Sequence record: KY794643.1
Direction: 5' to 3' (one strand)
Source of the DNA: Staphylococcus phage vB_Sau_S24
DNA: 64,000 bases
Positions 24,909-41,729 of this stretch are shown piece by piece. The notes below the pieces were generated by a model that was not told the DNA's origin, made no database searches, and saw only the letters and a program-made list of their open reading frames with translations. Positions within the stretch are counted from its first letter, which is position 1. Each line of letters starts with the position of its first letter. Made by a program: the position numbers and the translations under genes.

Positions 24909-24985
24909 ATAAGTTTATAAATAACTGTTGACAGCAGGTATTTATTATAGTATACTTTAGATATAAAGAAAAAGGAGAGGTTAAC

Positions 24986-25189
24986 ATGAATAACAAACAA
25001 ATTGAAAGATTACACAGGAAATCAAATGAGGTAGTAAGTAAATCAGAAGGTATTGAAGACTTAGGTTATGTACAAGCACATAAGATTATTAAGGAGTACC
25101 TTGATTTACCAGTGTCTGATTTTGAAAAGAGAGATGTAATGACTGAATTACTATTAGCGTTAGATAAAGCTAACAAAACATTAGACTAA
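24986..25189 (+). CDS. hypothetical protein (67 aa)
   Basis: Promoter TTGACAGCAG..TAGTAT. RBS AAAAGGAGAGG. Confidence 0.5.
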   Translation: MNNKQIERLHRKSNEVVSKSEGIEDLGYVQAHKIIKEYLDLPVSDFEKRDVMTELLLALDKANKTLD

Positions 25190-25222
25190 TTAGGATTTAT
25201 ATTATAAAGGAGGAAATTACAA

Positions 25223-25447
25223 ATGAATTATAAAGAGGTACTAGAAACTATTAAGAAGAATAAACCATGTAAGGTTAGATTTACTGGAAGTATTGTAGCA
25301 ATTGTTAACACAGAATTTAATGCAGACACTGGTAAAGGTGTATTACAGATTGATGTATCAGATATCAATAGAGACGATTACATTAAGCTACAGCAGTATT
25401 GCTTAGAAAGAGACGATTATACTGTAGCAGGTTCTATTTTATTTTAA
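25223..25447 (+). CDS. hypothetical protein (74 aa)
   Basis: RBS AAAGGAGGAAAT. Confidence 0.5.
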   Translation: MNYKEVLETIKKNKPCKVRFTGSIVAIVNTEFNADTGKGVLQIDVSDINRDDYIKLQQYCLERDDYTVAGSILF

Positions 25448-25467
25448 AAAGGAAAGGAGTTAACACG

Positions 25468-26376
25468 ATGATTAAAGTATTTTCAGAAATTGATACAAAA
25501 TATAAGACGATTGTACCGGAGAAATTCCCTAATGGTGAGATTAATTTTAAATACGATGACTTAGAATATTTAGTAGAAAAAGACCTACGGTTTGATGTTT
25601 TCTTTAAATGGGAAAGTGATGCGGACTTAATGCATTTGTATATGTTTACTAAGTATATAGAACAATTAGGTATTAAAGATAAAGCTGAGTTTTTAGACAT
25701 TGCATACGTACCTTATAGCAGAATGGATAGAGTAGAAGAAGGTCATAGTAATATGTTTAGTCTTAAGTATATTGCAGAGTTTATTAACAATCTTAATTAC
25801 AAATCGGTATGGGTAGCAGAGCCTCATAGCCCTGTAACAGAAGAATTACTTAAAAATTCTTTTGCTGTACATGTTACAATTAAACTATTAAACCAATATA
25901 TTGAAATGTCTGAAGAACCTGTAACAATTGTACTACCTGATAAAGGAGCATATGATAGATACCTATTTGATGTAGAACGTATATTAATAGACTCTAACAT
26001 TGAAAATTATTCAATTGTATATGGTGAAAAGGAACGTGATTTTGAGACAGGTAAGATTAAAGGAATTAAAATAATTACAGATGAAAATACTGTATACGAT
26101 AACTGCATCATCCTAGATGATTTAACAAGTTATGGTGGGACTTTTGTAGGTTGTAAAAAAGCTCTTGACAAACTAGGTGTTAATAGTGTATCATTAATAT
26201 TGACTCATGCAGAGAAAATATTTATGGATGGTAAACTATTTGAATCAGGTTTTAAAGATATCGTTGTAACAGACTCAATGTTATCTGATAGCCCTTGGAC
26301 AAAAGCTGTTGCTACCCATATAGCACAGGTAAATGGAACAGAATTACAAATAAAGGATATCGAAAGATATCTATAA
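25468..26376 (+). CDS. ribose-phosphate pyrophosphokinase (PRPP synthetase)-family protein; candidate ADP-ribose pyrophosphokinase (NARP1 Adps-like)
   Basis: RBS AAAGGAAAGGAG precedes ATG 25468. C-terminal PRPP-binding-like motif CIILDDLTSYGGTF. Prs-like size of 302 aa. It lies directly upstream of a NAMPT-like gene. Confidence 0.65.
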   Translation: MIKVFSEIDTKYKTIVPEKFPNGEINFKYDDLEYLVEKDLRFDVFFKWESDADLMHLYMFTKYIEQLGIKDKAEFLDIAYVPYSRMDRVEEGHSNMFSLKYIAEFINNLNYKSVWVAEPHSPVTEELLKNSFAVHVTIKLLNQYIEMSEEPVTIVLPDKGAYDRYLFDVERILIDSNIENYSIVYGEKERDFETGKIKGIKIITDENTVYDNCIILDDLTSYGGTFVGCKKALDKLGVNSVSLILTHAEKIFMDGKLFESGFKDIVVTDSMLSDSPWTKAVATHIAQVNGTELQIKDIERYL

Positions 26377-26393
26377 AAGGAGAAAAATAAACT

Positions 26394-27863
26394 ATGCTAA
26401 ATCCAACATTAATGTGTGACTTCTACAAATTAAGTCACAGAGAACAATATCCTGAAGGTACAGAAATTGTATATAGTACACTTGTACCTAGAAGTAACAA
26501 ATATTATGAACATAGTGATAATATTGTAGTATTTGGTATTCAATCACTTGTTAAAAAGTATTTTATTGATATGTTTAATAGAGAATTTTTTAATAGACCT
26601 AAAAAGGAAGTTATTAACGAATATAAACGTACAGTTAAATTCACATTAGGGCAAGAAAACCCTGACGCTAAACATTTAGAGCAGTTACATGACCTAGGCT
26701 ACTTACCTATTGATGTAAGAGCTTTAAAAGAGGGTACAGTAGTTCACCCTAATACACCTGTTATGACAATAGAAAATACTCACTCAGATTTCTTTTGGCT
26801 AACTAACTACTTAGAAACTATTATTAGTACTCAAACATGGCAAGCAATGACAAGTGCTACACTAGCATATGATATGCGTAAAATGTTAGATAAATATGCA
26901 ATAGAAACGGTAGGTAGTATTGATGCAGTAGATTTCCAAGGACATGACTTTAGTATGCGTGGGATGAGTTCACTAGAAACAGCTCAATTAAGTTCAGCAG
27001 GACATGCAATTAGTTTTAAAGGTAGTGACACTGTACCTGTAGTGGAATTCCTAGAATCTTATTACAATGCAGATGTAGAAAAAGAAATGGTTGTTGCCTC
27101 TATCCCTGCTACTGAGCATTCAGTTATGTGTGCAAACGGTGATTATGAGACAATGGATGAATACGAAACATACAAACGTATGTTAACGGAAATCTATCCA
27201 ACAGGAGTATTCTCTATTGTATCTGATACTTGGGACTTTTGGGGTAATATGACTAAAACTTTACCTAGACTAAAAGATATTATTATGGAAAGAGACGGTA
27301 AAGTAGTAATCAGACCTGATAGTGGAGACCCTGTTAAGATTATCTGCGGTGACCCTGATGCAGATACTGAGCATGAACGTAAAGGTGCTGTAGAAGTACT
27401 TTGGGACACTTTTGGAGGTACAGAAACTGAAAAAGGATATAAAGTACTAGATGAGCATGTAGGGCTAATTTACGGTGATTCTATTAACTATGAGCGTGCT
27501 CAACAAATTTGTGAGGGATTAAAAGAAAAGGGTTTTGCAAGTATTAACGTGGTATTAGGCGTAGGTAGTTTCTCTTATCAATTTAATACTCGTGATACTC
27601 ATGGATTTGCAATCAAAGCAACGTATGCTAAGATTAAAAATGAAGAGAAGCTTATCTATAAGAACCCTAAAACAGATAGCGGTAAACGTTCACACAAAGG
27701 TAGAGTAGCTGTTTACAAAGATGGCTCATGGGAAGATAACCTAAACCTTCACCAGTGGTTAAACAAACAGAATTTAAACCAATTAGAACGAGTATTTGAA
27801 GACGGTAAACTATATCGAGACCAGTCATTAAGTGAAATCAGAGAGATAATTAAAAATAATTAA
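26394..27863 (+). CDS. nicotinamide phosphoribosyltransferase (NAMPT)-family protein; candidate nicotinamide ADP-ribose transferase (NARP1 Namat-like)
   Basis: 489 aa with a NAMPT-like fold signature (…FQGHDFSMRGMSSLETAQLSSAGHAISFKGSDTVP…). RBS AAAGGAGAAAAATAA. Confidence 0.75.
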   Translation: MLNPTLMCDFYKLSHREQYPEGTEIVYSTLVPRSNKYYEHSDNIVVFGIQSLVKKYFIDMFNREFFNRPKKEVINEYKRTVKFTLGQENPDAKHLEQLHDLGYLPIDVRALKEGTVVHPNTPVMTIENTHSDFFWLTNYLETIISTQTWQAMTSATLAYDMRKMLDKYAIETVGSIDAVDFQGHDFSMRGMSSLETAQLSSAGHAISFKGSDTVPVVEFLESYYNADVEKEMVVASIPATEHSVMCANGDYETMDEYETYKRMLTEIYPTGVFSIVSDTWDFWGNMTKTLPRLKDIIMERDGKVVIRPDSGDPVKIICGDPDADTEHERKGAVEVLWDTFGGTETEKGYKVLDEHVGLIYGDSINYERAQQICEGLKEKGFASINVVLGVGSFSYQFNTRDTHGFAIKATYAKIKNEEKLIYKNPKTDSGKRSHKGRVAVYKDGSWEDNLNLHQWLNKQNLNQLERVFEDGKLYRDQSLSEIREIIKNN

Positions 27864-27876
27864 TAAATAGTTAAAC

Positions 27877-27915
27877 TCCCTATTGACAAATAGGGGTTTC
27901 TATTATATAATATAC
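27877..27915 (+). promoter_or_regulatory. terminator hairpin whose loop holds the -35 box (CCCTATT-GACA-AATAGGG), followed by TATAAT
   Basis: TTGACA at 27882-27887 sits inside the hairpin. TATATAAT lies downstream. Confidence 0.5.
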
Positions 27916-27941
27916 CTATAATAAATAAGAGGAGGGTTAAT

Positions 27942-28196
27942 ATGATATACGTTGGAGTAACGGAGAAAGAAAAACTAGTTGCAGGAGACTTAGTAAAATC
28001 AAAAGAAGAAAATAAATGGGGTATAGTAGTAGGAGATAAACAAGACTTAAATGTACTTATTCTAGATGATGAACCTTGGTTGTTTTATAAATCAGGTATT
28101 AAAAGAGTAGAAGGGCAATTAGAGGAGGATTTTAAATTTATTAAAAATAAAAGTGAATATAATATGGATATAGGTGATGGGATTTATTCAGATTAA
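27942..28196 (+). CDS. hypothetical protein (84 aa)
   Basis: RBS AAGAGGAGGG. Confidence 0.5.
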   Translation: MIYVGVTEKEKLVAGDLVKSKEENKWGIVVGDKQDLNVLILDDEPWLFYKSGIKRVEGQLEEDFKFIKNKSEYNMDIGDGIYSD

Positions 28197-28218
28197 ACTA
28201 AATAGTAAGGATGAGAAT

Positions 28219-29840: not shown

Positions 29841-29865
29841 CATTAAATAAATAACGTGTTAAGAT
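29837..29865 (+). promoter_or_regulatory. conserved promoter/leader module (TTGACA-N17-TAAGAT with an extended TGn, then leader TAATATATAATCAATTAAGGAGG); copy 1 of 4
   Basis: Near-identical copies are at 32212, 35215 and 36235. Confidence 0.55.
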
Positions 29866-29897
29866 TAATATATAATCAATTAAGGAGGAAAGTTAAC

Positions 29898-32171
29898 ATG
29901 AAACAATTAGTATTAATGAGAGGGGTGCCGGGAGCCGGAAAGTCTACTTTTATTAAAGAGAATGGGTTAGAACCTTACACTCTCTCCCCTGATGAACTTA
30001 GAACAATGCATACAAGCCCTATATATAATGAGCAAGGAATGAAAGTTATATCTCAGAAACACGATAATAAAGTTTGGGATAACCTAATGGAAATTCTTGA
30101 AGAAAGAATGATTAATGGGGATTTTACTGTTATTGATGCTACGCACTCTACAGGAAAATTAATTAAAAAATATGAGACACTAGCTCGTAAATATCGTTAT
30201 CGTACTTATGTAGTAACTATTGAGCAAGATTTAGACACATTAATTGAACGTAATAACCAAAGAAAAGAGTTAAAAAAGGTTCCTGAAGAAGTAATTTACA
30301 ATATTTATGAAAGGTTACAACATGAACATATCCCTAGTTATGCTACAGAAATTAGCTCAGATGAATTAATGGATAAGATTAAATGGAAAAAAGATTCCTT
30401 TGATGCCGATAATTATGATAAAATCCATGTTATTGGGGACGTTCATTCATGTTTTACAGTAATTAATCAGTTTGCAAGTTATCAAAAAATTATTGATAAT
30501 CCAAATGAGTTATTTATCTTTGTCGGGGACTACTTTGATAGAGGTTTAGAGACTAAAGAGGTGTTTGATTACTTAGAACTAATTTATAAACAACCTAATG
30601 TAGTGTTGTTGGAAGGTAATCATGAGAGACACTTAAGACGATATGCCTTTTTAGATGAGGAAGATTATTTAAGTTTAGATTGTACAGATAAAGATTTCTA
30701 TGATACTGCAATGAAATTATTCCATGCAAGAGGTTTTATTCCTACGCTTAAAGAATTCATGACATATGGAATTACTCAAAAACAAGTAAGACGTATTGTT
30801 CATAAATTACAGCAAATAGTATACTTCAATTATAAAGGGCAATACTATATGATTAATCATGGTGGTATCTTACCTAATATGTTAGATGACATTAACTTAG
30901 TATCAACTCACCAAATCATTAATGGCGTAGGTGGGTATGAATATCAAATTGATGAGCAATGGGATGACTCAGATGTTATTCAGATTCACGGTCACAGAAA
31001 TCTTTATAGGGAGCCTTTAGATGTAACAAAACAATCTATTAATTTAGAGGGAAGAGTTGAAAAAGGAGGTTCTTTAAGAGCTGTAACGATTAATGAAGAC
31101 AATACTTTAACGCCTTATGAAATTAAAAACGAAGTATATGATTCTAAATTTTTATTAAACAATGACTATACAGAAGATATTGACCCTAATCTAACAGTTG
31201 AAGATTATTTAAAACTAGCAAAAGAAGACCCCTATATTAAAGTCGTACCTCAATATGATAATGTAGTATCTGTAAACTTTACTAGAAAGGCTTTTAGCAG
31301 AAAGCATTGGAACCAATTATCTGTTACTGCTAGAGGATTATTTATTGATGAGAGTACAAATAAAATTGTTGGTAGAGGGTATAATAAATTCTTTAATATT
31401 AATGAAAGACCTGAAACAAAATTAGAAAATCTACCTGATACTTTAGAATTCCCTGTATATGCTTCATTAAAATATAATGGATTCTTGGGGTTAATGTTCT
31501 ATGACAATAATCGTGATGAACTAATTTACGCTAGCAAATCGAAAACACATTTATCACAACATGATAATTCTTTTGCTCTATTATTTAAAGAAATTGTTGA
31601 AGAAACATGGACTACTGAACAAATTAAAAATACAAAAAAATATTTAAAAGAAACAAATAAAACACTTTTATTTGAAGTAATAGATAATATTAATGACCCT
31701 CATATTATTGATGATGGAGATAAAAGAAGAGTAGTATTATTAGATGCTGTTGACAACACGCTTAAATTTAATAAACTAGTTGGAGAAGAGCTCATTTATC
31801 TTGCAGTAAATGTGATTGGTATTGATAAAAATGTATCCACTTCTAATTTCTCTTTCTCTAATTGGAATGACTTATTTACTTTTTACCAAGACTTAGAAAA
31901 AGATAATTCTTTTGCAATAGAAGGGTTTGTGTTAGAAGACTCTAATGGGTTCATGTTAAAATATAAAACACCATATTACAATAATTGGAAATATATGAGA
32001 AGTTTAGTTGATTCATTATCAAAGGATAACTTACAAAGAAGACCTATTCAAGCAATCTTACAAAAAGATAAAACTCTTACAGACTTTTATTACTGGGCAA
32101 AACAACAAGACAAAGAATATTTAAAGAACGATATTATTACTTTAAGAAATGATTTCTACAAAGAATTATAA
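29898..32171 (+). CDS. Pnkp-like three-domain RNA repair enzyme: P-loop polynucleotide kinase, calcineurin-type phosphoesterase and RNA-ligase-like nucleotidyltransferase
   Basis: N-terminal Walker A (LMRGVPGAGKST). Middle binuclear metallophosphatase motifs (GDVHSCF, GDYFDRG, GNHE, GHRN). C-terminal ligase motifs I (SLKYNGFLG), IV (EGFVLED) and V (LKYKTPYY). The true ATG at 29898 follows AAGGAGGAAAG. Confidence 0.7.
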   Translation: MKQLVLMRGVPGAGKSTFIKENGLEPYTLSPDELRTMHTSPIYNEQGMKVISQKHDNKVWDNLMEILEERMINGDFTVIDATHSTGKLIKKYETLARKYRYRTYVVTIEQDLDTLIERNNQRKELKKVPEEVIYNIYERLQHEHIPSYATEISSDELMDKIKWKKDSFDADNYDKIHVIGDVHSCFTVINQFASYQKIIDNPNELFIFVGDYFDRGLETKEVFDYLELIYKQPNVVLLEGNHERHLRRYAFLDEEDYLSLDCTDKDFYDTAMKLFHARGFIPTLKEFMTYGITQKQVRRIVHKLQQIVYFNYKGQYYMINHGGILPNMLDDINLVSTHQIINGVGGYEYQIDEQWDDSDVIQIHGHRNLYREPLDVTKQSINLEGRVEKGGSLRAVTINEDNTLTPYEIKNEVYDSKFLLNNDYTEDIDPNLTVEDYLKLAKEDPYIKVVPQYDNVVSVNFTRKAFSRKHWNQLSVTARGLFIDESTNKIVGRGYNKFFNINERPETKLENLPDTLEFPVYASLKYNGFLGLMFYDNNRDELIYASKSKTHLSQHDNSFALLFKEIVEETWTTEQIKNTKKYLKETNKTLLFEVIDNINDPHIIDDGDKRRVVLLDAVDNTLKFNKLVGEELIYLAVNVIGIDKNVSTSNFSFSNWNDLFTFYQDLEKDNSFAIEGFVLEDSNGFMLKYKTPYYNNWKYMRSLVDSLSKDNLQRRPIQAILQKDKTLTDFYYWAKQQDKEYLKNDIITLRNDFYKEL

Positions 32172-32211
32172 GATTAGTCCTTAACAGGGCTTTTCTTTTT
32201 ACTATATACTG

Positions 32212-32240
32212 TTGACATTAAATAAATAATGTGTTAAGAT
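32212..32240 (+). promoter_or_regulatory. conserved promoter/leader module, copy 2
   Basis: CTGTTGACATTAAATAAATAATGTGTTAAGATTAATATATAAT is nearly identical to copy 1 at 29835-29877. Confidence 0.55.
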
Positions 32241-32270
32241 TAATATATAATAAATTAGGAGGAGTTAATT

Positions 32271-32540
32271 ATGAAAGTATTAAACATAAAAGAAATTGTA
32301 GGAGTTAAAAGTGCACTAAATAATTTAGGGATTAACAATATTAAAAAAGAGTTTAAAGATGGTTTTTGGACTTTAAAATCTATGACTAAAAATAACTATA
32401 TAGAAATTGATAATTCTACTAATCAAGATAACTATGTGAATTTAAAATATTATGCAAGACCTGATAGTTCTTATATGTCATCTGTACAAGTAGAAATAGA
32501 TTTTTTAGAAAGCTTTTTGGGAAGACAAGTAAATTATTAA
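32271..32540 (+). CDS. hypothetical protein (89 aa)
   Basis: RBS TAGGAGGAGTTAATT. Confidence 0.5.
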   Translation: MKVLNIKEIVGVKSALNNLGINNIKKEFKDGFWTLKSMTKNNYIEIDNSTNQDNYVNLKYYARPDSSYMSSVQVEIDFLESFLGRQVNY

Positions 32541-32568
32541 AACATAGATTTTATAAGGAGGAATAGTT

Positions 32569-32958
32569 ATGTATAGATTTTTATTGTTTAGTTATGCTGA
32601 GTATTACCCTAGTGGTGGATTGGACGATTTGATATTGCAGTTTAATACAATAGAAGAACTTAAAGAAGTAGATACTTTTGATATATCTGATTATGTTGAA
32701 GTTTATGATTTTAAAGCAGGAGAAGAAATATTTGGAGACCATTCACCAGATAGCAGGGAGCATAAAGTAGCTAAGTTAGTTTCTCAGATGGAAGAGTATT
32801 TAAAAAACAATGCTTGGGATTTAAAAAGTCCTAAACCTGGAGTTAGAAATGAGAAAACGTTAGAAGAAATGATGGAAGATAGCCATAATAAGTTTGGTGA
32901 ATTGTATAAAGGTTTAGCAGAGATTGAGAGAAAAGAAAAGGAAGATGATTTAAAATAA
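32569..32958 (+). CDS. acidic hypothetical protein (129 aa)
   Basis: RBS TAAGGAGGAATAG. Confidence 0.5.
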   Translation: MYRFLLFSYAEYYPSGGLDDLILQFNTIEELKEVDTFDISDYVEVYDFKAGEEIFGDHSPDSREHKVAKLVSQMEEYLKNNAWDLKSPKPGVRNEKTLEEMMEDSHNKFGELYKGLAEIERKEKEDDLK

Positions 32959-32984
32959 AAATTTTATAGGAGGAGATTTTATAA

Positions 32985-33134
32985 ATGGGACATTACGTTG
33001 ATGATACAGAACAAAGATTATTATTCCTCGAGAGGGTTGTAGCGGTATTAATAGCAGAAAAAAAGGGCGTTGAATTAGATAGTGAAGATGAAGACATGCT
33101 TGATGAACTATTAGAAGAAAAATACTATAGATAA
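32985..33134 (+). CDS. small acidic protein (49 aa), a candidate only
   Basis: RBS TAGGAGGAGATTTTATAA precedes the ATG. Confidence 0.4.
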   Translation: MGHYVDDTEQRLLFLERVVAVLIAEKKGVELDSEDEDMLDELLEEKYYR

Positions 33135-33173
33135 AAACATATTTAAAATAACCGTTTTATAGGAGGAATTATA

Positions 33174-33485
33174 ATGAATGCATTTCAAGCTAGAACGTTA
33201 TCTATTGTAACTAAATTAGAAGCAAATAAAGAGTACAAAGAAATGTTACCTACACATATAAGAAGTGCTTTAGAAGATATTGATAAGAGAATTGAATATG
33301 AAGCTAGTGTAGGTCGTACAAAGCTAATAGTAAAAGAAGCAGATTATCCTATCCTTAACAAAGAAGCATTTAAAGATATAAAAGAAGATTTAAAGAAAAA
33401 AGGGTTTAAAGTAAAGTTTAAAACTTTTAAAAAAGACTATGGTATGGCTACACTTATCTCTGAGGGATTACTTATTAAGTGGTAA
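33174..33485 (+). CDS. hypothetical protein (103 aa)
   Basis: RBS TAGGAGGAATTATA. Confidence 0.5.
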   Translation: MNAFQARTLSIVTKLEANKEYKEMLPTHIRSALEDIDKRIEYEASVGRTKLIVKEADYPILNKEAFKDIKEDLKKKGFKVKFKTFKKDYGMATLISEGLLIKW

Positions 33486-33493
33486 GGAGTAAA

Positions 33494-33580
33494 GAGAATA
33501 AATTAAAAAACTTTAACTCTATCTATTGACATAGGTAGAGTTTTACTATATACTAAGAGTATATCAAATAAGGAGATGAT
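33494..33580 (+). promoter_or_regulatory. 70-bp terminator/promoter/leader module (hairpin CTCTATCTAT-TGAC-ATAGGTAGAG with the -35 box in its loop), second copy of 28531-28600
   Basis: AAAAACTTTAACTCTATCTATTGAC(A/T)TAGGTAGAGTTTTA..TATACTAAGAGTATATCAAATAAGGAGATG occurs at both sites. Confidence 0.55.
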
Positions 33581-33585
33581 TTGGA

Positions 33586-34677
33586 ATGAGAAAGAAATGG
33601 ACTGATAAGGATTTTAAGTTTAACAGAGGTGATATTGTAAAAGGCGTAGAGATACTGGGGTATACGTATACAAAGTTTAATGATGAGAAATATAATAAAG
33701 CTTTTTGGGTAAAAAATATAAAAGAAAATATTGTTTTTAAGATAGAACAGAATGCTATAAAGAGAAGTAAGTCTACTAACTTACTACCAAAAGGTAAACA
33801 AGCTAGGTTATTTAATACAGTAGCTAAGAAACGTCCTGACTTAATTCCTTTTATTGTTAATAAGGAAGACCTGCAACTTCAACCAGGCTCAAATAAAAAA
33901 GTTAAAGTAAGATGCCCTATCTGCAAGAAAATAAATGAAAAACCTATGATGGTTAATGATTTAGTACGAAGCGGTTTTAATTGTAAGGACTGTACTTTAC
34001 ATAAATCATTTCCCCAACAAGTCATAGAAGCTTATTTATCTTTGAATGATATAGAATATATTACTGAGTATCATATTAGACATAATAATAAAAATAGATA
34101 TATAGATATTATGATTCCTAGTAAAAATATAGCTATCGAAATTCACGGTTATCAACATTACAATGATGTCGTATATTGGAAAAACACGTTAGAGCATCAT
34201 GAAATATCTACAACAATAAAGAAACAATACTGTAAAACTCACAGTATAAAACTAATAGAGATTAATGCAAAAGAGTCTAAACTACCTTATATAAAAAGAA
34301 GTGTAAGGAGCACAGAACTATCTTATATTTTATCTATATCAGATACAGAGGTAATGCAATACGTTCAGACTAATAACTACATCTTAAGAGAAATGGTAGC
34401 TATGTATAAAGAAGGTCACACATTAAAAGAAATAGGCAATAAGTTTAATATGAGCAGTTCCGGTGTAGGTAAAAGAATGACTCAGTTAGGGTTAAAGTCA
34501 CGAGGAAAAAGACCTGTTAAATGTATAACTACTGGAGAAGTATTTGAAAGTGTAAGAGAAGCTAGTAGATGGGCAGGGATAAAGAATAGCGGAAACATCT
34601 GTAATAATATATCCGGGAGAAGTAAATACGCAGGAGAACATAGAGGGGAGAAACTACAATGGGAGTATGTTGACTAA
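33586..34677 (+). CDS. free-standing protein resembling a homing endonuclease: zinc finger, Vsr/DUF559-like nuclease core and AP2/HNH_3-type C-terminal DNA-binding domain
   Basis: CxxC..CxxC (CPICKK...CKDCTL). IDIMIPSKNIAIEIHGYQHY resembles the DUF559/Vsr fold. The C-terminus (VFESVREASRWAGIKNSGNICNNISGRSKYAGEHRGEKLQWEYV) resembles the AP2-like tails of phage HNH endonucleases. Confidence 0.5.
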   Translation: MRKKWTDKDFKFNRGDIVKGVEILGYTYTKFNDEKYNKAFWVKNIKENIVFKIEQNAIKRSKSTNLLPKGKQARLFNTVAKKRPDLIPFIVNKEDLQLQPGSNKKVKVRCPICKKINEKPMMVNDLVRSGFNCKDCTLHKSFPQQVIEAYLSLNDIEYITEYHIRHNNKNRYIDIMIPSKNIAIEIHGYQHYNDVVYWKNTLEHHEISTTIKKQYCKTHSIKLIEINAKESKLPYIKRSVRSTELSYILSISDTEVMQYVQTNNYILREMVAMYKEGHTLKEIGNKFNMSSSGVGKRMTQLGLKSRGKRPVKCITTGEVFESVREASRWAGIKNSGNICNNISGRSKYAGEHRGEKLQWEYVD

Positions 34678-35214
34678 TAAGAAACAAATAAAAACAAATC
34701 AAAACAAATCTAAGTACCTGGGAATTCTTTTACCTCTCCCACTCAGCCTATTACTTACTACCGACTTTCCTAACTACTTATTCTATAGTTATACTATTCA
34801 TTTATTATACAATAGTAAACTATAGTATTCTACCTGTAAACTATGCTGAAGAGGTAGTAATCTATTGTTATTATATAATAAACTTATCTAATGGTATGTT
34901 AATCTATGATGTTACACAAATATAGAAAATAGCTTAAATTTAGAAAATATATAAAACTTTCCCTAGGGGAAAAGTATATACCTATGTACTATAAAGGCTG
35001 TAGGTATGAGATTCTATATTTTAGTATTCTTATGTTACACAAATATATCCGCTTCAATTACAATTAATTGTTGACGGATATGAAGCGGTATGTTATACTT
35101 AGTATATAAAGTTAAGAGGAGGAGTTAATTATGACTAGAGAAGAAATGGAAATGGAACAAGCTAGACAAGACTACGTAACTGCAAAAACAATCAGAAACT
35201 TTTAATCAAAAGTA

Positions 35215-35243
35215 TTGACATTCAATAAGTAGTATGGTAAGAT
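35215..35243 (+). promoter_or_regulatory. conserved promoter/leader module, copy 3
   Basis: TTGACATTCAATAAGTAGTATGGTAAGATTAGTATATAATCAATTAGGAGGAG. Confidence 0.5.
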
Positions 35244-35272
35244 TAGTATATAATCAATTAGGAGGAGAAGTA

Positions 35273-36064
35273 ATGAAATTTCATTTAAATAGTAATATTG
35301 TAGAAGGTACACCTGAGGAGTTAGTAGAGTACTTAAGACTACTAGAAGCGGAGAGCACTGAGAATGATAAAGATAAAGATGAAGGGGAAGAAGTATATAA
35401 CGATGTATATGATAAAGGAGCTTTCTATACAGTAACTGATGAGGCTGAGGATTCAGCATTGCCTGTAGGTGCTATTCTTCAACATCAACATGGTAGAATG
35501 TTTAGAGATTCACAAGGGAATCTATGTATTATCTCTAGACCATCTCTTTTAAATAGAGGACATGTGAATGGTGATGAAATTAAAAAACAACGTTTTGAAC
35601 TAGCTAAACAATTAGGTATTCAACTAACGACTACTATAGATTTTGCTGAGGAAGCTAAAGGTAAATACTTCAAGGTAACAAAAAAGTACTCACACTTAGA
35701 TGTGGGAGACCTTGTTACTATTGATTATGACGAGGAAGATACTCAACCACTATGTAGGGATAAATATGGTAACTCCCTTTATGTGTGTATACATGACCTG
35801 GAGTTATTAGAAGATGCTCCTATGGGATATACATTTTGGTATATAGACGGAGTTTATAATCGTACCAATAATGTACTCGAAGCAACACTTGACGGAGACT
35901 TTGAAGATTCAACAGGAACTAGGTATACTTATCAAGCTGTACATGGTTTGATAAAACCTCTTGATAAAGAAGATGCTCGTAAGCACTTTGAAGAAGCTAA
36001 GCATTATGACTGCCTATTAAAGTATTATTCTACAGTGGATGAATTTACGATGTCTAAATATTAA
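35273..36064 (+). CDS. hypothetical protein (263 aa); the true ATG is downstream of a leader-encoded false extension
   Basis: ATG 35273 follows AATTAGGAGGAGAAGTA. A GAAGCGGTTATCCGCTTC hairpin lies just after the stop. Confidence 0.55.
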   Translation: MKFHLNSNIVEGTPEELVEYLRLLEAESTENDKDKDEGEEVYNDVYDKGAFYTVTDEAEDSALPVGAILQHQHGRMFRDSQGNLCIISRPSLLNRGHVNGDEIKKQRFELAKQLGIQLTTTIDFAEEAKGKYFKVTKKYSHLDVGDLVTIDYDEEDTQPLCRDKYGNSLYVCIHDLELLEDAPMGYTFWYIDGVYNRTNNVLEATLDGDFEDSTGTRYTYQAVHGLIKPLDKEDARKHFEEAKHYDCLLKYYSTVDEFTMSKY

Positions 36065-36195
36065 TTAACAATTGAAGCGGTTATCCGCTTCTCCTACTTA
36101 GAGTATATAAGTAATTGTATATTGTAAGTAGGAGTGATTAACCTACAGACCTTTTAGACTGAGGTCGAGTCATTTTGGTTTGTTCCAAACGCCGG

Positions 36196-36226
36196 CACCC
36201 TATTGGCAGATAGGGTGTTTTTTTTA
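36196..36226 (+). terminator. strong rho-independent terminator (CACCCTAT-tggcag-ATAGGGTG followed by T8) ending a 160-nt non-coding segment that contains four hairpins
   Basis: Read directly from the sequence. Confidence 0.75.
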
Positions 36227-36234
36227 TTTATCTG

Positions 36235-36263
36235 TTGACAAGTAGTAAGTAGTGTGGTAAGAT
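36235..36263 (+). promoter_or_regulatory. conserved promoter/leader module, copy 4
   Basis: TTGACAAGTAGTAAGTAGTGTGGTAAGATTAGTATATAAATTAATTAGGAGTGG. Confidence 0.5.
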
Positions 36264-36293
36264 TAGTATATAAATTAATTAGGAGTGGTTACA

Positions 36294-36587
36294 ATGATTA
36301 GTATTTATTTACGTAGGGATTATAGTAAAAATAAATTAAAAGGTATCCTTAAAGAAATAAAAGGGTTTGCTCCTAGGGAGTTAACCTATGGTGTTGACAA
36401 TGTAGAAGCGGATGTTAATATTGAGGGATTATTAAGGGATGATGTAGATATATTTTATTCTTTAACATTACGTTACCCTGATGATATTAATATCCTAGTA
36501 GGAGATAGCGGGTATATGATAATGTACCAGGATGATTATCTTACAATTCCTGGGCTGAGAGTGGTTATAGAGGAGGCGTTATTATGA
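36294..36587 (+). CDS. ~100-aa paralogous family, tandem copy 1 of 6
   Basis: MISIYLRRDYSKNKLKGILKEIKGFAPRELTYGVDNVEADVNIEG. Consensus: M-I-x-I-(F/Y)-x(4)-Y-x-K-x-x-L-x-x-L-L-x-x-I-x(6)-R-x-L-T-Y-x(7-9)-(E/D)-A-D-V. Confidence 0.6.
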   Translation: MISIYLRRDYSKNKLKGILKEIKGFAPRELTYGVDNVEADVNIEGLLRDDVDIFYSLTLRYPDDINILVGDSGYMIMYQDDYLTIPGLRVVIEEALL

Positions 36588-36766
36588 ATAAAGTATTAGA
36601 ATTTGTTATGTATTATATATTGTATTTAGTAGCAGGATTTATAGGTGTTTGTGTAGGTAATTTAGTTACAGGAGGAGATATTAATCCTTTTACCTTTTGG
36701 TTACCTTATGTATTTGCTTTAATATTTGCTATAGTAGATTATAGAAGTAGTAACAAGGAGGAATAG
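36584..36766 (+). CDS. small membrane protein (60 aa)
   Basis: ATGA overlap; two TM helices. Confidence 0.45.
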   Translation: MNKVLEFVMYYILYLVAGFIGVCVGNLVTGGDINPFTFWLPYVFALIFAIVDYRSSNKEE

Positions 36767-36768
36767 AT

Positions 36769-37068
36769 ATGATAATATTATACAGAGAGAACTTCAAAAG
36801 AGATACAATGTCAGAACTGCTTACACTAATACAGGATATTAAGCCTGATTGGACTTATTCCTTTAATGATGATAGTGAAGCGGATGTAAAGGTTATAAAG
36901 CATACTGGAAGTAGTTTACCTGATACCGCAGAGGAATTAGTTGAAAGTACTGGAGGATTAGTTATATCTATAGTTGGGAATGGTTGTGTATCAGAATGCC
37001 CTAAGGAATTTAATGCAGGTATGACTGATGTTAGAGAACATATTAGAACATACACATATGGAAAGTAA
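36769..37068 (+). CDS. ~100-aa paralogous family, tandem copy 2
   Basis: MIILYRENFKRDTMSELLTLIQDIKPDWTYSFNDDSEADVKVIKH. RBS AAGGAGGAATAG. Confidence 0.6.
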   Translation: MIILYRENFKRDTMSELLTLIQDIKPDWTYSFNDDSEADVKVIKHTGSSLPDTAEELVESTGGLVISIVGNGCVSECPKEFNAGMTDVREHIRTYTYGK

Positions 37069-37083
37069 TAAGGAGGAATAGAT

Positions 37084-37269
37084 ATGATAGGATTCACAAT
37101 ATTAATTACAATAATAGTTATCATGACTATAGCTATGTACACTCAGGTGTTAGTAGATATGATTCAATCAATCAGATATGATAGATTTGATAAGGTACTT
37201 AACATAGTAACGTTTATACTTATGACAGTTGTACTAGTATCAGGTATTTTAATTATGTTTGGCATTTAG
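37084..37269 (+). CDS. small membrane protein (61 aa)
   Basis: RBS TAAGGAGGAATAGAT. Two TM helices. Confidence 0.45.
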   Translation: MIGFTILITIIVIMTIAMYTQVLVDMIQSIRYDRFDKVLNIVTFILMTVVLVSGILIMFGI

Positions 37270-37376
37270 AGCTCATTTAAGAGTATTCTAAGTAGTAGAG
37301 GATAAATTGTACTAGAAATATAATAGAAGCTCTGTATGGAAGGCTGAGAGGGCTTAGAATTGAAAGGAGAGATTTA

Positions 37377-37691
37377 ATGCAAGCAACTATATACTGTGCT
37401 AATAGGTACAGTAAAAATACATTAAAGAGTCTTTTAGAGAAATTAGAAGCGGAGAATAGAAACTTAACATATAGTACTGACATAGCAGATATGAAGGAAG
37501 TGGATGTTATTGTACAACACACTGACCTATCTTTTGCAGAGTTAATGGATTCTTGTGATAGAGTAAGTAAAGGGTCTGACCGCTTCCAAGTATTTGTAGG
37601 TAATCACGCAGGGTATTATATAAACGGTGATTTATACATTAACGAAGTAGGTAAGTTTATTGTACCTAGGAAAACTAATATGATGATGTAG
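37377..37691 (+). CDS. ~100-aa paralogous family, tandem copy 3
   Basis: MQATIYCANRYSKNTLKSLLEKLEAENRNLTYSTDIADMKEVDVIVQH. Confidence 0.6.
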   Translation: MQATIYCANRYSKNTLKSLLEKLEAENRNLTYSTDIADMKEVDVIVQHTDLSFAELMDSCDRVSKGSDRFQVFVGNHAGYYINGDLYINEVGKFIVPRKTNMMM

Positions 37692-37704
37692 AGGGGGAGA
37701 TTTA

Positions 37705-38004
37705 ATGAACATTAAGTTATCTTATACACCTGATTGTAGAAGAGGTAGTTTAAAAGATATAATACATGCAGTAGAAGACAGTAATAGAAGAACTTTAAGA
37801 TACTCTGAATCCATGAGAGAAGAAGCGGATGTATACGTTATTCAAATAGATGATAGTTTTAAAAATTTACAGAAACATACAAAACAGATTTCTGAAGATA
37901 TTCCTGATACTATATTTATCGTAGTAGGTGATTATTGGGAAATATATTATCGAGGGGAAGGGTTAGGTTTAATGAGTGCACTTCCTATTATTAGAGAGGT
38001 ATAA
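37705..38004 (+). CDS. ~100-aa paralogous family, tandem copy 4
   Basis: MNIKLSYTPDCRRGSLKDIIHAVEDSNRRTLRYSESMREEADVYVIQI. Confidence 0.6.
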   Translation: MNIKLSYTPDCRRGSLKDIIHAVEDSNRRTLRYSESMREEADVYVIQIDDSFKNLQKHTKQISEDIPDTIFIVVGDYWEIYYRGEGLGLMSALPIIREV

Positions 38005-38018
38005 AAGGAGGAGATATA

Positions 38019-38309
38019 ATGATTCATATATTTGTAGTAGAGAACTATAATAAAGAAACATTAGGGGATTTACTTGGATATATTAATACTAATGTAGATA
38101 GGGAATTAACTTACGGTCTTAATACAGAGTATGATAAGGATATAGTAGTTGAAATAGATATGCCAATAGATGAGAAAACTGCACGTGAGTTATCAGGTAT
38201 CGACACATTCAAAGGTGACTTATGTATTATTGTAGAAGAAGGTTACTGTAAGGCATTTCTGAATGGTCACCCTACTCTCATACGTACCTATGTAGAAAGG
38301 ATGATATAA
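38019..38309 (+). CDS. ~100-aa paralogous family, tandem copy 5
   Basis: MIHIFVVENYNKETLGDLLGYINTNVDRELTYGLNTEYDKDIVVEI. Confidence 0.6.
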   Translation: MIHIFVVENYNKETLGDLLGYINTNVDRELTYGLNTEYDKDIVVEIDMPIDEKTARELSGIDTFKGDLCIIVEEGYCKAFLNGHPTLIRTYVERMI

Positions 38310-38596
38310 TGATTAAAATATTTATCGGGAAGCGGGATTATAAATATACTTTAGAAGCGGTATTGAGGTTTATTAAAAATAAGTCTGAAAGAGAGTTTAC
38401 CTATAGTACAAGTGATATGGTTGGTGTAGATGTATATGTATACGTAACTGAGTTATTTAGTAGTAGTCGTATTAGAGAGCACTCAGAAGAATTACCACAG
38501 GATATAATTGTACATATTGCAGACGGTTTAGGTATATATGTAGATGGTGAGATAGTGTCTATTGATGAACTTGAAGATTATATAGAGAGGATGTAA
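38309..38596 (+). CDS. ~100-aa paralogous family, tandem copy 6
   Basis: MIKIFIGKRDYKYTLEAVLRFIKNKSEREFTYSTSDMVGVDVYVYV. Confidence 0.6.
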   Translation: MIKIFIGKRDYKYTLEAVLRFIKNKSEREFTYSTSDMVGVDVYVYVTELFSSSRIREHSEELPQDIIVHIADGLGIYVDGEIVSIDELEDYIERM

Positions 38597-38599
38597 TGG

Positions 38600-38851
38600 A
38601 TGTATTCAAATAGTGTTTATAAGATACCTAAGTATAACGTATATCATAATCCATCTAAGAAAATAATAAAAGAAGATATTGATATAAGAGAATTAGTTCA
38701 TTTATTATTTACTATGCACGAAAAAAACATTATAAAGGTATACCCTATGGATTATGGTCTTTCTCTTTTAACTATTCATGTACAGGAATTAATTAAGGAT
38801 GTTGAAGCGGAAGGAAATATAATTATCAATAGAACAATATCGAGTATATAG
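38600..38851 (+). CDS. ~80-aa paralogous family B, tandem copy 1 of 3
   Basis: Shared pattern: ...Y(T/N)VYH.....K(T/V)I...L......L.......(D/N)I.KVYP.DY... as in the copies at 38930 and 39191. Confidence 0.5.
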   Translation: MYSNSVYKIPKYNVYHNPSKKIIKEDIDIRELVHLLFTMHEKNIIKVYPMDYGLSLLTIHVQELIKDVEAEGNIIINRTISSI

Positions 38852-38905
38852 GATAGGATAGGATAGGATAGGATGAAAATAACTTAGGATGCTTAGGATG
38901 AAATA
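38851..38905. repeat. short tandem repeat: five units of GGATA followed by two TTAGGATG units in an intergenic spacer
   Basis: ATAGGATAGGATAGGATAGGATAGGATG...CTTAGGATGCTTAGGATG. Confidence 0.8.
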
Positions 38906-38929
38906 CGATAAGATAGGAGGATGTAATAA

Positions 38930-39178
38930 ATGTTTAATGTATATTATACAGTTTACCATAGACAAAGTATGAAGACGATTAAAGATTATTTAAGTAGGAG
39001 TGATTTAATTGAATTCTTATATGAGACTTGGAATAAGGATATAAGTAAGGTATACCCAACAGATTATACTACGTATGAAACAAAATTCTGTATAGACATA
39101 GACCTAGATAGATTAATTGAAGCGGTTAATGAAGAAGGTATACTACTTATCAACCGTGGTTATGATGCAGAGTTGTAG
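38930..39178 (+). CDS. family B, tandem copy 2
   Basis: MFNVYYTVYHRQSMKTIKDYLSRSDLIEFLYETWNKDISKVYPTDY...LLINRGYDAEL. Confidence 0.5.
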   Translation: MFNVYYTVYHRQSMKTIKDYLSRSDLIEFLYETWNKDISKVYPTDYTTYETKFCIDIDLDRLIEAVNEEGILLINRGYDAEL

Positions 39179-39190
39179 GAGGAGATAAAT

Positions 39191-39427
39191 ATGAATCAGT
39201 TTTTCACGTATACAGTGTATCATCAAGAATCAGGTAAAGTAGTAGCTAAGGATTTGTTTGATGCATCATTGGTGCACCTTATTAACAAGATGATAGAGGA
39301 AGATTTAGTTAAGGATATAGAATTATCTGACTATAGTATTTCTAATGGGGATATAGCTGTACTTAGTCTAATAAAGGCTATAGAATCACAAGGTGTATTT
39401 CTATTCAAACGTAAGATACATGGATAG
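39191..39427 (+). CDS. family B, tandem copy 3
   Basis: MNQFFTYTVYHQESGKVVAKDLFDASLVHLINKMIEEDLVKDIELSDY...VFLFKRKIHG. Confidence 0.5.
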   Translation: MNQFFTYTVYHQESGKVVAKDLFDASLVHLINKMIEEDLVKDIELSDYSISNGDIAVLSLIKAIESQGVFLFKRKIHG

Positions 39428-39600
39428 GATGTTGACAAATCGTAGAGAGGGCTTAAGTAGTCCTCTCTTATTTAGGTTAGAATGTTGACTAAGTAGCTCC
39501 CTTGTTTTTAGGTTAGAATGTTGTCTAAGTAGTTCCCTGTATTTACAAGTAGCTCTCGATTTTTTGATATAGTTGTAAGTAGCTCCCTCTTATTTCCCCT
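39425..39600. repeat. four degenerate direct repeats of about 35-45 bp (GTTG(A/T)C(A/T)AAGTAGCTCCCT..TTT..); candidate left boundary of the long terminal repeat
   Basis: GTTGACAAATCGTAGAGAGGGCTTAAGTAGTCCTCTCTTATTTAGGTTAGAAT / GTTGACTAAGTAGCTCCCTTGTTTTTAGGTTAGAAT / GTTGTCTAAGTAGTTCCCTGTATTT / GTTGTAAGTAGCTCCCTCTTATTT. Confidence 0.6.
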
Positions 39601-39677
39601 AGTTTATCCCAACCGCTTCAAGCAGACCGCAAAAAGAATCCCCAGGAATTATATTCCCAGGGATTTCTATAATTTTT

Positions 39678-40016
39678 TTATAGAATATTTATAACATTAT
39701 ATTCAAATTGATTTACTTCATGTTTTGATTTAATTAAATTTTTAATTAATCCATTTTGTGTTTTGTACGATTTAATTAACTTTTCATTTTCTATAATTAA
39801 ATTATTGAATTCTTTTTCTGTTGTTTCTTCATCTACATAAAATCTACTTTCATATATTTCATAATATTTTTTATCTGTACCACAATCTAAATCATCTGAA
39901 ATTTGATAATTTTTGAATACAATTTCAGTAGATTCTAATTCATTTTGAATTAATTCTGTTTTTGCATATTGTAACACGTCTTCATTTTCCCACATTGGAA
40001 TATAGTTTATTTTCAT
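39678..40016 (-). CDS. hypothetical protein (112 aa) on the opposite strand to the rest of the LTR genes
   Basis: Clean ORF with a weak RBS. Sits just after the left-boundary repeats. Confidence 0.45.
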   Translation of the reverse strand: MKINYIPMWENEDVLQYAKTELIQNELESTEIVFKNYQISDDLDCGTDKKYYEIYESRFYVDEETTEKEFNNLIIENEKLIKSYKTQNGLIKNLIKSKHEVNQFEYNVINIL

Positions 40017-40327
40017 TTAAATCAAATCCTTTTCTTATAATTTTTTTATATAATTTCTGTAGAAACGGTTGGGGGTTTGTCCCTTGCCTTACTACACTTA
40101 ATATATTACAGTATAGTTATTCAGAAGTCAATACTTTTGAATAACTTTTTTTAAATTCTTTTTTCTTCCATATAATAGTAGTTTTTAGCCCTAAAAATGT
40201 TTTTAAATAAATTTTAAAAAACCTATTGACTTATTAATCATATGGTAGTAATATAAAGGTACAGCAAGGGAACAGCAACAAGATATTAGAATTATATAAA
40301 AAAATTATTTAATTGGAGCTGATTTAA

Positions 40328-40636
40328 ATGGAAATAAAAGAAATTGCAGATGCTATTATGGAGTTGTGGCAGATGGACGGGTACAAATGTTCAGAACCTC
40401 CACTATATGAAAGCACAATCAATCACACACGCAAATATACGGCTTTAATCGTTTCTATTAAAGGAAACTATGAAACTGTTCAGATGTTCCGTAAAACGCC
40501 TTTAATGAGCTTGAGAGGGCAAAGCCAACCGGCTAGCATGTTGGTTAATGTAATTGAAGATGTGATTATAATCGTATATGAAAATACGGTTTACGGTGTG
40601 AAAGATAAAGAAATAAAATTTATTGAAGAAATTTAA
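40328..40636 (+). CDS. LTR early-type gene, hypothetical (102 aa)
   Basis: Promoter TTGACTTATTAATCATATGGTAGTAATAT upstream. RBS TTGGAGCTG. Confidence 0.5.
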   Translation: MEIKEIADAIMELWQMDGYKCSEPPLYESTINHTRKYTALIVSIKGNYETVQMFRKTPLMSLRGQSQPASMLVNVIEDVIIIVYENTVYGVKDKEIKFIEEI

Positions 40637-40840
40637 AAATAGGGGTTGCAATACCCCTTAAGATGTAGTAATATAATAGATGTAAGGGATAGCAACACAC
40701 CTTAAAAACTTTTTTAAAAAGTTAAAGAAAAGTGTTGACAACTTACAAGATACATGTTATTATTAAGATAACAAATAAGACAAGCCACATAGCAAATAAC
40801 GAAATTAAATAAAAAAATTATAGAATAGGATTTGATTATT

Positions 40841-41101
40841 ATGACAAACACAAACAAACAATTTAAAAGATTTGAAGATATGGTAGCAGACAAATTGGAA
40901 ATTTTGAAAAATGTTGATATTGATAATATTGAAGAATTTGAATATAATGAAATTATGGGGGTTACGATTGAATTAACTACAATGATTTTTACAACAAAGG
41001 AATTAACAGAAATTACAGAATCAGAAATTGAACAACATATTAAAAATGAAATTGGATTGACTATTGACGATTTACAACAATTAGAAAATAGTTTTTACTA
41101 A
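40841..41101 (+). CDS. LTR early-type gene, hypothetical (86 aa)
   Basis: Hairpin/promoter (GGGGTTGCAATACCCCTT ... TAATATAAT) followed by RBS ATAGGATTTG. Confidence 0.5.
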   Translation: MTNTNKQFKRFEDMVADKLEILKNVDIDNIEEFEYNEIMGVTIELTTMIFTTKELTEITESEIEQHIKNEIGLTIDDLQQLENSFY

Positions 41102-41691: not shown

Positions 41692-41729
41692 TAGTATAAA
41701 AAAATTATAAAAAAGGAAGTTGATTAATT

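Follow-up and report, generated by a model that had tools for sequence, protein, structure and literature searches.

A probable NARP1 NAD+ reconstitution module formed by adjacent Adps-like and Namat-like genes in a Staphylococcus Twortvirinae phage

NARP1 (NAD+ reconstitution pathway 1) has been described in the Bacillus phages SPbetaL1 and FADO (Osterman et al., bioRxiv 10.1101/2024.02.11.579819; PMC12774641), and its two enzymes, the Prs-like Adps and the NAMPT-like Namat, are likewise encoded by adjacent genes in the Vibrio phage ICP1, for which structures of Adps are available (PMC13586617), and in the Escherichia phage Bas63. NARP2 of the Vibrio phage KVP40 serves the same purpose, NAD+ restoration, and also relies on a nicotinamide-using enzyme of the NAMPT family, NadV; it proceeds via NMN, needs a bifunctional Nmnat and involves no Prs-like partner. 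The NARP1 proteins have the folds of housekeeping Prs (TIGR01251) and of NadV/NAMPT salvage enzymes and share catalytic residues with them. Here we compare with these systems a gene pair found in 64,000 nucleotides of DNA from Staphylococcus phage vB_Sau_S24 (KY794643.1), hereafter the window, which belongs to a Staphylococcus Twortvirinae phage and is 98.7% identical to vB_Sau_Clo6. The pair is already known, having been catalogued in the NARP1 discovery paper: Supplementary Tables 1 and 2 of Osterman et al. (bioRxiv 10.1101/2024.02.11.579819) list the Clo6 orthologues, the Prs/Adps homologue with the entry 'Namat within 10 genes: Yes' and the Namat as 'Adps-associated'. Between the Adps encoded in the window and the Clo6 entry of Table S1, identity is 100%.

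The interval from 25468 to 27863 is exactly filled by two co-oriented genes on the plus strand, adps (25468..26376; Prs-like, 302 aa) and namat (26394..27863; NAMPT-like, 489 aa), spaced by 17 nt. Position 25468 is the A of the ATG of the Prs-like gene and 27863 the final base of the NAMPT-like stop codon, so that the back-to-back arrangement of a Prs-family and a NAMPT-family gene reported in the initial annotation was confirmed in its coordinates and, as described below, in its family matches, which far exceed what chance would give. Gene order and orientation are those of SPbetaL1 and FADO, the host here being Staphylococcus instead of Bacillus. The list of open reading frames begins the Prs-like gene at a TTG (25399), a start that overlaps its upstream neighbour. 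Its ATG at 25468 lies downstream of both the TAA of that gene (25445-25447) and a ribosome-binding site, AAAGGAAAGGAG, and is the annotated start of the Clo6 orthologue. The start of namat, 17 nt past the adps TAA, is preceded by AAAGGAGAAAA, and each gene of the pair thus has its own ribosome-binding site.

A consensus scan returned a promoter-like site (TTGACA-17-TATACT, 11/12; 24928..24956, plus strand) upstream of the adps/namat pair and of two small ORFs that precede it; because the total number of promoter-like sites was not above the shuffled expectation, we only infer a promoter function for this site. The small ORFs, also on the plus strand (24986-25189, 67 aa, and 25223-25447, 74 aa), match PHROG 7235 and 7618, both families of unknown function, and neither has a Pfam match. 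They are possibly co-transcribed with the pair. We considered them as additional members of the module and rejected this, as they are missing from the loci of the more distant relatives L014-L016; they probably lie outside the module. In the same scan, the only terminator-like site between 24500 and 28700 was a hairpin at 27877..27896 (plus strand), 14 nt past the namat stop, which is overlapped by a 12/12 promoter-like site (27883-27911) for the next gene.

We consider it highly probable that the two genes are a NARP1 module. This reading draws on the gene structure, the family and clade placement of the proteins, their functional residues and motifs, the absence of an NMNAT and the conserved adjacency of the genes. 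By homology to SPbetaL1, FADO, Bas63 and ICP1, the pathway would operate as follows. A host defence effector (SIR2, TIR, SEFIR or similar) would split NAD+ into ADP-ribose (ADPR) and nicotinamide. Adps (25468-26376) would then act on ADPR and ATP to yield ADPR-PP and AMP, and Namat (26394-27863) would use ADPR-PP and nicotinamide to form NAD+ and PPi. Since Namat would exchange the pyrophosphate of ADPR-PP for nicotinamide, NAD+ would arise directly, and neither an NMN intermediate nor an NMNAT would be necessary. With its NAD+ pool rebuilt, the phage would escape NAD-depletion (abortive infection) defences. Activity is assigned by homology because our literature search returned no NARP1 enzyme assay or phage genetics for Staphylococcus phages or Kayvirus.

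The Prs-like protein scored 78.1 bits (5.5e-22) against TIGR01251, below the curated cut-off of 113. The characterised Adps of SPbetaL1 (106), FADO (96.5) and ICP1 (98) also fall below this cut-off, as opposed to E. coli Prs at 423. The protein was far under the cut-offs of all PRPP synthetase equivalog models of NCBIfam, had no Pfam match at E <= 0.01, and matched PHROG 619 at 2.7e-87. Its nearest characterised relatives are the Adps of SPbetaL1 and FADO, at 37-38% identity, followed by those of ICP1 and Bas63 at 21-24%, while identity to E. coli Prs was 17%. Since a protein homologue search with Adps retrieved Adps-like proteins only and no canonical Prs, outgroups for a neighbour-joining tree were drawn from PDB alignments as well as the E. 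coli genome. In this small, distance-based tree, where three of the four true Prs (E. coli, M. smegmatis, M. jannaschii and S. solfataricus) are partial sequences transcribed from PDB alignments, the window Adps formed one clade with the SPbetaL1 and FADO enzymes (bootstrap 99.5%), and all four characterised Adps fell into one clade, with 69% support, apart from the true Prs.

Residues that matter for Adps activity are retained. Lysine 188 of the catalytic hairpin (K188-E-R190; codons 26029..26037, plus strand) aligns with SPbetaL1 K162 and ICP1 K185 and is invariant in 67 homologues; both SPbetaL1 Adps K162A and ICP1 Adps K185A are inactive. In the alignment with ICP1 and SPbetaL1 Adps, R85, H120, D158, D217, D218 and F226 coincide with functional residues, the first five being acceptor-groove residues held in common with ICP1 and Bas63, and F20 was also conserved when catalytic and ADPR-groove residues were compared. 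The PP loop, D217-D-L-T-S-Y-G-G-T-F226 (codons 26116..26145, plus strand), is of the type DDL[ST]S[YF]GGTF found in SPbetaL1 (DDLSSFGGTF) and FADO (DDLSSYGGTF), unlike the DDICDG(A/G)xx(T/S)F of ICP1 and Bas63. The terminal Phe of the loop, equivalent to ICP1 F221, which acts as an ATP lid (PMC13586617), was present in all aligned Adps and in none of the four true Prs, which carry L, I or M instead. Three ligand contacts of ICP1 Adps differ in the window protein (D216 to S221, F92 to E90 and F223 to G228).

An AlphaFold2 model of Adps (pLDDT 93.7) has the PRPS fold, with TM-scores of about 0.66-0.71 against PRPP synthetase structures, and sequence and fold searches of the PDB, in a set outside which the ICP1 Adps structures lie, returned PRPP synthetases only. 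Unlike housekeeping Prs, the protein does not have the canonical C-terminal regulatory and filament helices (the alpha11-alpha12 module), which are likewise lost in ICP1 and Bas63 Adps: as judged from the alignment and the AlphaFold2 model instead of from superposition on PRPS coordinates, the C-terminal segment of E. coli Prs has no aligned counterpart, and the model terminates a few residues past its last strand (E292-296, H298-301). With its 302 aa, the window Adps exceeds those of SPbetaL1 and FADO (272-277 aa) by about 30 residues, and differs from them by a longer segment at 166-182 and a C-terminal helix at 276-288. In the model, the lineage-specific segments are a longer helix at 159-175 and this extra helix, which precedes the last strand.

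The NAMPT-like protein matched PF04095 at 3.6e-46 and NF006629 at 1.1e-168, and scored 662 bits against the SPbetaL1 Namat structures (PDB 9W5X/9W5W) versus about 224 bits against mammalian (human/rodent) NAMPT. The second-best Namat-like match was PDB 9KE8/9KEO, for which a literature search found nothing relevant. Identity was 60% to SPbetaL1 and FADO Namat, 49% to ICP1 and 46% to Bas63, and 35% to KVP40 NadV, whose gene was located by the published primer sequence. The catalytic core shared with SPbetaL1 and FADO is conserved (D9, Y11, F186, R189, D212, H242, R307 and D309, R307 corresponding to SPbetaL1 R306), and the residues of the clamp are F393, F397, T399, R400, D401 and K36-Y37. The selectivity-clamp (SCH) helix motif G391-S-F-S-Y-Q-F-N-T-R-D401 (codons 27568..27600, plus strand) fits the published consensus for the Namat adenine clamp, GSX-phi-X-phi-X-phi-TRD with aromatic X at positions 3 and 7, and F393 and F397 occupy the two adenine-stacking positions. 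At the same columns KVP40 NadV reads GGGLLQQLDRD, with Gly and Gln in place of the stacking aromatics, and its SCL loop is shorter. The stacking residue that the SCL loop of Namat supplies is either an Arg at position 3 or the residue that comes after a Lys/Tyr. In the SCL loop of the window Namat (S34-N35-K36-Y37), a Lys is followed by an aromatic residue, as in FADO (K-Y) and Bas63 (K-W), whereas SPbetaL1 Namat stacks with Arg40; going by the alignment, Lys36-Tyr37 would take over this stacking role. Phylogeny and active-site residues, the comparisons by which the initial annotation had proposed to check its reading, therefore both point to NARP1: the Prs-like protein groups with characterised Adps, the NAMPT-like protein shares 60% identity with Namat versus 35% with an NMN-forming NadV, and the Namat clamp, the Adps catalytic lysine and the PP loop are all present (PMC12774641, PMC13586617).

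Partner genes of other NAD+ routes were looked for as well. None of the 131 ORFs of the window had a Pfam match to an NMNAT (cytidylyltransferase), NadR, PnuC, Macro or RyR domain, and tblastn with NadD and NadR, run on the window and on 93% of Clo6 (all but the 10 kb from 50000 to 60000), gave nothing significant, the best E-value being 0.65. The initial annotation had seen no NMNAT in the window, and this held both there and in the part of its closest genome that was covered. Neither the neighbours of the pair nor the rest of the window has a Macro or RyR match by Pfam, as would be expected of extended NARP1 with its Macro-domain phosphatase Adpp or of RyDEP-linked NARP1, and neither family of the NARP3 pair PnuC + NadR is among the Pfam matches of the window, the NadR tblastn being negative too. 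A NadD match in 'Staphylococcus phage SA 1306 Kay', the only one under a 'Staphylococcus phage' name in the phage collection, was rejected as a phage NMNAT: its record is marked UNVERIFIED_ORG, its surroundings are those of a standard Firmicute chromosomal locus, and it comes from a mislabelled host contig.

These results bear on the possibility that the pair serves classical auxiliary metabolism, in which a true PRPP synthetase and an NMN-making, NadV-type NAMPT would provide replication with more nucleotides and NAD irrespective of any defence, with host NadD or another enzyme adenylating NMN. The GenBank and PHROG names of both genes agree with this, the Staphylococcus host possesses NadD, the catalytic residues common to Prs and Adps are present, and Namat enzymes have PRPP-to-NMN activity in vitro at about half that of human NAMPT. 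We nevertheless regard it as distinctly unlikely. The Prs-like protein falls under the curated Prs cut-off and groups with Adps, and SPbetaL1 Adps, when supplied with ADPR, yielded a product but did not do so in the Prs-activity test (the substrate of which is ribose-5-phosphate according to the figure legend and PRPP according to the text). The Namat carries the clamp that confers preference for ADPR-PP, and SPbetaL1 Namat, when given PRPP together with ADPR-PP, made NAD+ only. Moreover, Osterman et al. find the phage Nampt genes of the NMN route paired with Nmnat (NARP2), which the phage appears to lack in the window and in 93% of Clo6. Taken together, clade placement, active-site motifs and the absence of an NMNAT support the preference of the initial annotation for NARP1 over classical Prs plus NadV.

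Since Namat enzymes can still form NMN from PRPP in vitro, a secondary NMN route may operate alongside NARP1. A dual use of the pair would have NARP1 act upon ADPR released by defence systems, while in defence-free hosts Namat alone would draw on host PRPP to make NMN for NAD salvage. SPbetaL1 Namat does turn PRPP and nicotinamide into NMN without ADPR-PP, and the near-universality of the pair in Staphylococcus Twort-like phages would suit a benefit extending beyond rare defence systems. Osterman et al., however, argue that NARP1 is idle unless NAD+ is being cleaved, and the step from NMN to NAD+ would rely on host enzymes; we judge dual use to be highly improbable. That the Staphylococcus-phage enzymes depart from canonical NARP1 in the ADPR-derived acceptor or donor they use, as the lineage-specific Adps segments (the longer helix and the extra helix 276-288) and the three positions differing from ICP1 Adps might suggest, has a next to negligible chance of being correct, since the Namat clamp is canonical and the validated SPbetaL1 Adps has the ICP1 residue at none of the three positions, matching the window protein at two (S195 and E74) and carrying K202 at that of F223.

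Very unlikely, too, is the view that NARP1 of Staphylococcus Twort-like phages is a functionally distinct Firmicute-phage variant, either with an Adps that accepts other ADPR-derived substrates or in partnership with a NADAR protein. The first form has been based on the extra helices of Adps and its Ser/Tyr PP loop; the SPbetaL1 enzyme, with a PP loop of the same type, acts as a canonical Adps. In the second form, ADP-ribose taken off ADP-ribosylated targets by the NADAR protein would return to NAD+. The same phage encodes a NADAR-domain protein at 49574-50068, adjoining a metallophosphatase.

Relatives sharing 48% and 40% identity have the same order, Adps then Namat, amid different flanking genes. 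This DNA was matched by 226 phage records, 223 of them from Staphylococcus, and the Prs-like protein was present in 196 Staphylococcus records, indicating that nearly all Staphylococcus Twort-like phages carry the pair.

Relative to published NARP1 work, these results add no new biology. In Staphylococcus Twort-like phages, many of which are therapeutic candidates, the two genes are widely misannotated as 'ribose-phosphate pyrophosphokinase' and 'nicotinamide phosphoribosyltransferase', and the NARP1 reading corrects this. With a NARP1 module, these phages are predicted to withstand defences that deplete NAD, for example type I Thoeris, DSR1/2, SIR2-HerA and SEFIR, and this predicted resistance is relevant to predicting host range and to engineering phages.

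The interval 25468-27863 comprises exactly two genes, a Prs-like gene followed by a NAMPT-like gene, back to back as the initial annotation had placed them, co-oriented and 17 nt apart. The first (predicted adps, plus strand, 302 aa) runs from ATG 25468 to TAA 26376. A mechanical ORF list starts it at TTG 25399, which overlaps the gene upstream; ATG 25468 lies 3' of the upstream stop and of the ribosome-binding site AAAGGAAAGGAG, and the annotation of phage vB_Sau_Clo6 (KY794642; 98.7% identical over 25000-28200) uses the equivalent start. The second (predicted namat, 26394-27863, plus strand, 489 aa) is preceded by AAAGGAGAAAA. A consensus scan, yielding pattern matches only, placed a plus-strand promoter-like site (11/12) at 24928-24956, 5' of two small plus-strand ORFs of unknown function (67 and 74 aa) that precede the Prs-like gene, and a plus-strand terminator-like hairpin, the sole one in the region, at 27877-27896, just 3' of the NAMPT-like gene. 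The window (G+C about 30%) matches Staphylococcus Twortvirinae phages, and 223 of 226 phage records matching 25000-28200 are Staphylococcus records.

In NARP1, Adps pyrophosphorylates ADPR and Namat joins the resulting ADPR-PP to nicotinamide, giving NAD+ (Osterman et al., bioRxiv 10.1101/2024.02.11.579819). Judged by its sequence, the NAMPT-like gene encodes a Namat. The protein matched PF04095 and PF18127, and a PDB sequence search ranked 9W5X and 9W5W, crystal structures of SPbetaL1 Namat (PMC12774641), at the top with 662 bits, against about 224 bits for mammalian NAMPT. In an alignment including the characterised loci of SPbetaL1, FADO, ICP1, Bas63 and KVP40, it was 60% identical to the Namat of SPbetaL1 (assayed in vitro and in vivo), 60% to that of FADO (which has a deletion phenotype), 49% to ICP1 and 46% to Bas63, versus 35% to KVP40 NadV, the NARP2 enzyme that forms NMN. 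Namat is distinguished from Nampt by an adenine 'selectivity clamp', made up of the SCH motif GSX-phi-X-phi-X-phi-TRD, with aromatics at the adenine-stacking positions, and the SCL loop, which contributes one more stacking residue, either an Arg in position 3 or a residue preceded by Lys/Tyr (PMC12774641). The window protein carries the SCH motif G391-S-F-S-Y-Q-F-N-T-R-D401, with F393 and F397 corresponding to SPbetaL1 F392 and Y396, and the SCL S34-N35-K36-Y37, which resembles those of FADO (K-Y) and Bas63 (K-W). KVP40 NadV, in contrast, has GGGLLQQLDRD at the SCH position and a shorter SCL loop. The window protein also retains its full catalytic core (D9, Y11, F186, S187, R189, D212, H242, R307, D309, G361, D362).

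The second-best solved relative of the window Namat, 9KE8/9KEO (528 bits), has the clamp GAQTYQRNTRD, with Gln and Arg where Namat has two aromatics; a literature search found no paper describing it. The Clo6 Namat gene (L001, our Clo6 stretch, 30678-33068; KY794642 90677-93067) contains a 307-aa in-frame, intein-like insert that interrupts the catalytic VIRPD|SGDP motif, with CYDEE at its start, a TPNH block within and VCGN at its end before Ser; the window allele is uninterrupted.

The Prs-like protein is, on its sequence and predicted structure, an Adps. Its AlphaFold2 model shows a PRPS fold (pLDDT 93.7), and its top PDB fold matches were all PRPP synthetases (TM about 0.66-0.71). We rejected a curated Prs: there was no Pfam match at E <= 0.01, TIGR01251 scored 78 bits (cut-off 113), and all equivalog models fell far under their own cut-offs. 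TIGR01251 was also under cut-off in three of the four characterised Adps (SPbetaL1, 106; FADO, 96.5; ICP1, 98 bits), with 138.5 bits for Bas63 Adps and 423 for E. coli Prs. The SPbetaL1 and FADO Adps share 37-38% identity with it, those of ICP1 and Bas63 21-24%, and E. coli Prs 17%. In a small neighbour-joining tree (25 sequences, 200 bootstraps), the protein joined the Adps of SPbetaL1 and FADO with 99.5% support, nested within a clade that held the four characterised Adps (69%) and was separate from the PRPP synthetases of E. coli, M. smegmatis, M. jannaschii and S. solfataricus, three of these four being partial sequences transcribed from PDB alignments. K188 maps to SPbetaL1 K162 (Osterman et al., bioRxiv 10.1101/2024.02.11.579819) and ICP1 K185 (PMC13586617), both essential by mutagenesis, and the protein keeps R85, H120, D158, D217, D218 and F20. 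Its PP loop, DDLTSYGGTF, belongs to the type seen in SPbetaL1 and FADO. At the position of ICP1 F221, which forms part of the ATP lid (PMC13586617), it has F226; Phe occupies this position in all Adps aligned and in none of the four Prs. The canonical C-terminal helices of Prs, whose loss is a family signature of Adps (PMC13586617), have no counterpart in the alignment or model. ICP1 residues D216, F92 and F223 are not kept, as is also the case in the validated SPbetaL1 Adps.

The initial annotation had favoured NARP1 over classical Prs plus NadV, and the Namat clamp, the Adps clade, the published residues and the lack of an NMNAT bear this out. Most of the remaining doubt attaches to a possible classical or dual PRPP/NMN role of the pair, since Namat keeps NMN-forming activity in vitro (PMC12774641). 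As noted initially, no NMNAT was seen in the window: a Pfam scan of all 131 ORFs called (minimum length 45 aa) gave no match to an NMNAT/cytidylyltransferase, NadR, PnuC, Nudix, Macro or RyR domain. Searches with E. coli NadR and NadD (tblastn) of the window and 93% of the genome of Clo6, the closest relative, gave nothing better than E = 0.65, and the Clo6 annotation lists no gene of this kind. Because these searches of the window and of 93% of Clo6 found no partner genes for other routes, NARP2, NARP3 and Macro-extended NARP1 are excluded. A NadD search of the whole phage collection returned one 'Staphylococcus phage' record only, SA 1306 Kay (OR844995.1, UNVERIFIED_ORG), whose nadD we rejected as a phage NMNAT; 36077-44637 holds a standard Firmicute chromosomal mtnN-yqeG-yqeH-aroE-nadD-yqeK-rsfS-comEA-comEB locus, and at least this part of the record is host DNA.

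In metagenomic relatives with Adps 48% and 40% identical, a NAMPT-like gene again lies directly 3' and the flanks differ. Retention of the pair while its flanks change supports a two-gene module, and suggests that the two small ORFs lie outside it. In two loci with the 40% identical Adps (L015 and L016), a metallophosphatase gene at 6596-7384 directly follows the NAMPT-like gene; it lacks a Macro domain and may serve the module as an accessory phosphatase.

Elsewhere in the window, a NADAR-domain protein (PF08719, E = 1.8e-39) is encoded at 49574-50068 (minus strand), 22 kb from the pair, with a calcineurin-like metallophosphatase gene directly upstream (50086-50793, minus strand). This is a second gene of the window with a domain whose name points to NAD and ADP-ribose; any functional tie to NARP1 is speculation. 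A 771-aa fusion of AAA_33 kinase, calcineurin-like phosphoesterase and T4 Rnl1-type RNA ligase (29856-32171, plus strand), annotated in Clo6 only as 'RNA ligase', looks like an RNA-repair enzyme. One ORF within 32271-47684 has HNH_3 and NUMOD4 homing-endonuclease domains, and a nucleoside 2-deoxyribosyltransferase match (PF05014, E = 6.8e-08) likely stems from ORF 63056-63682 (minus strand), by position relative to Clo6 gene 190.

Collectively, the sequence evidence makes it highly probable that the pair is a NARP1 module, as first proposed. Such a pair in a Staphylococcus phage is already known: Osterman et al. (bioRxiv 10.1101/2024.02.11.579819) list KY794642_00110, 100% identical to the window Adps, in Supplementary Table 1 ('Namat within 10 genes: Yes'), together with phages K, G1, ISP and A5W, and KY794642_00111 as 'Adps-associated' in Supplementary Table 2. 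With its Clo6 orthologues in both tables, the pair therefore falls within the 859 phage genomes they counted with NARP1. A literature search found no experimental test of a Staphylococcus-phage NARP1. The defences that NARP1 overcomes include type I Thoeris, DSR1, DSR2, SIR2-HerA and SEFIR (Osterman et al., bioRxiv 10.1101/2024.02.11.579819). The finding adds no new biology; its value lies in a corrected annotation and in the defence resistance it predicts for Staphylococcus Twort-like phages.
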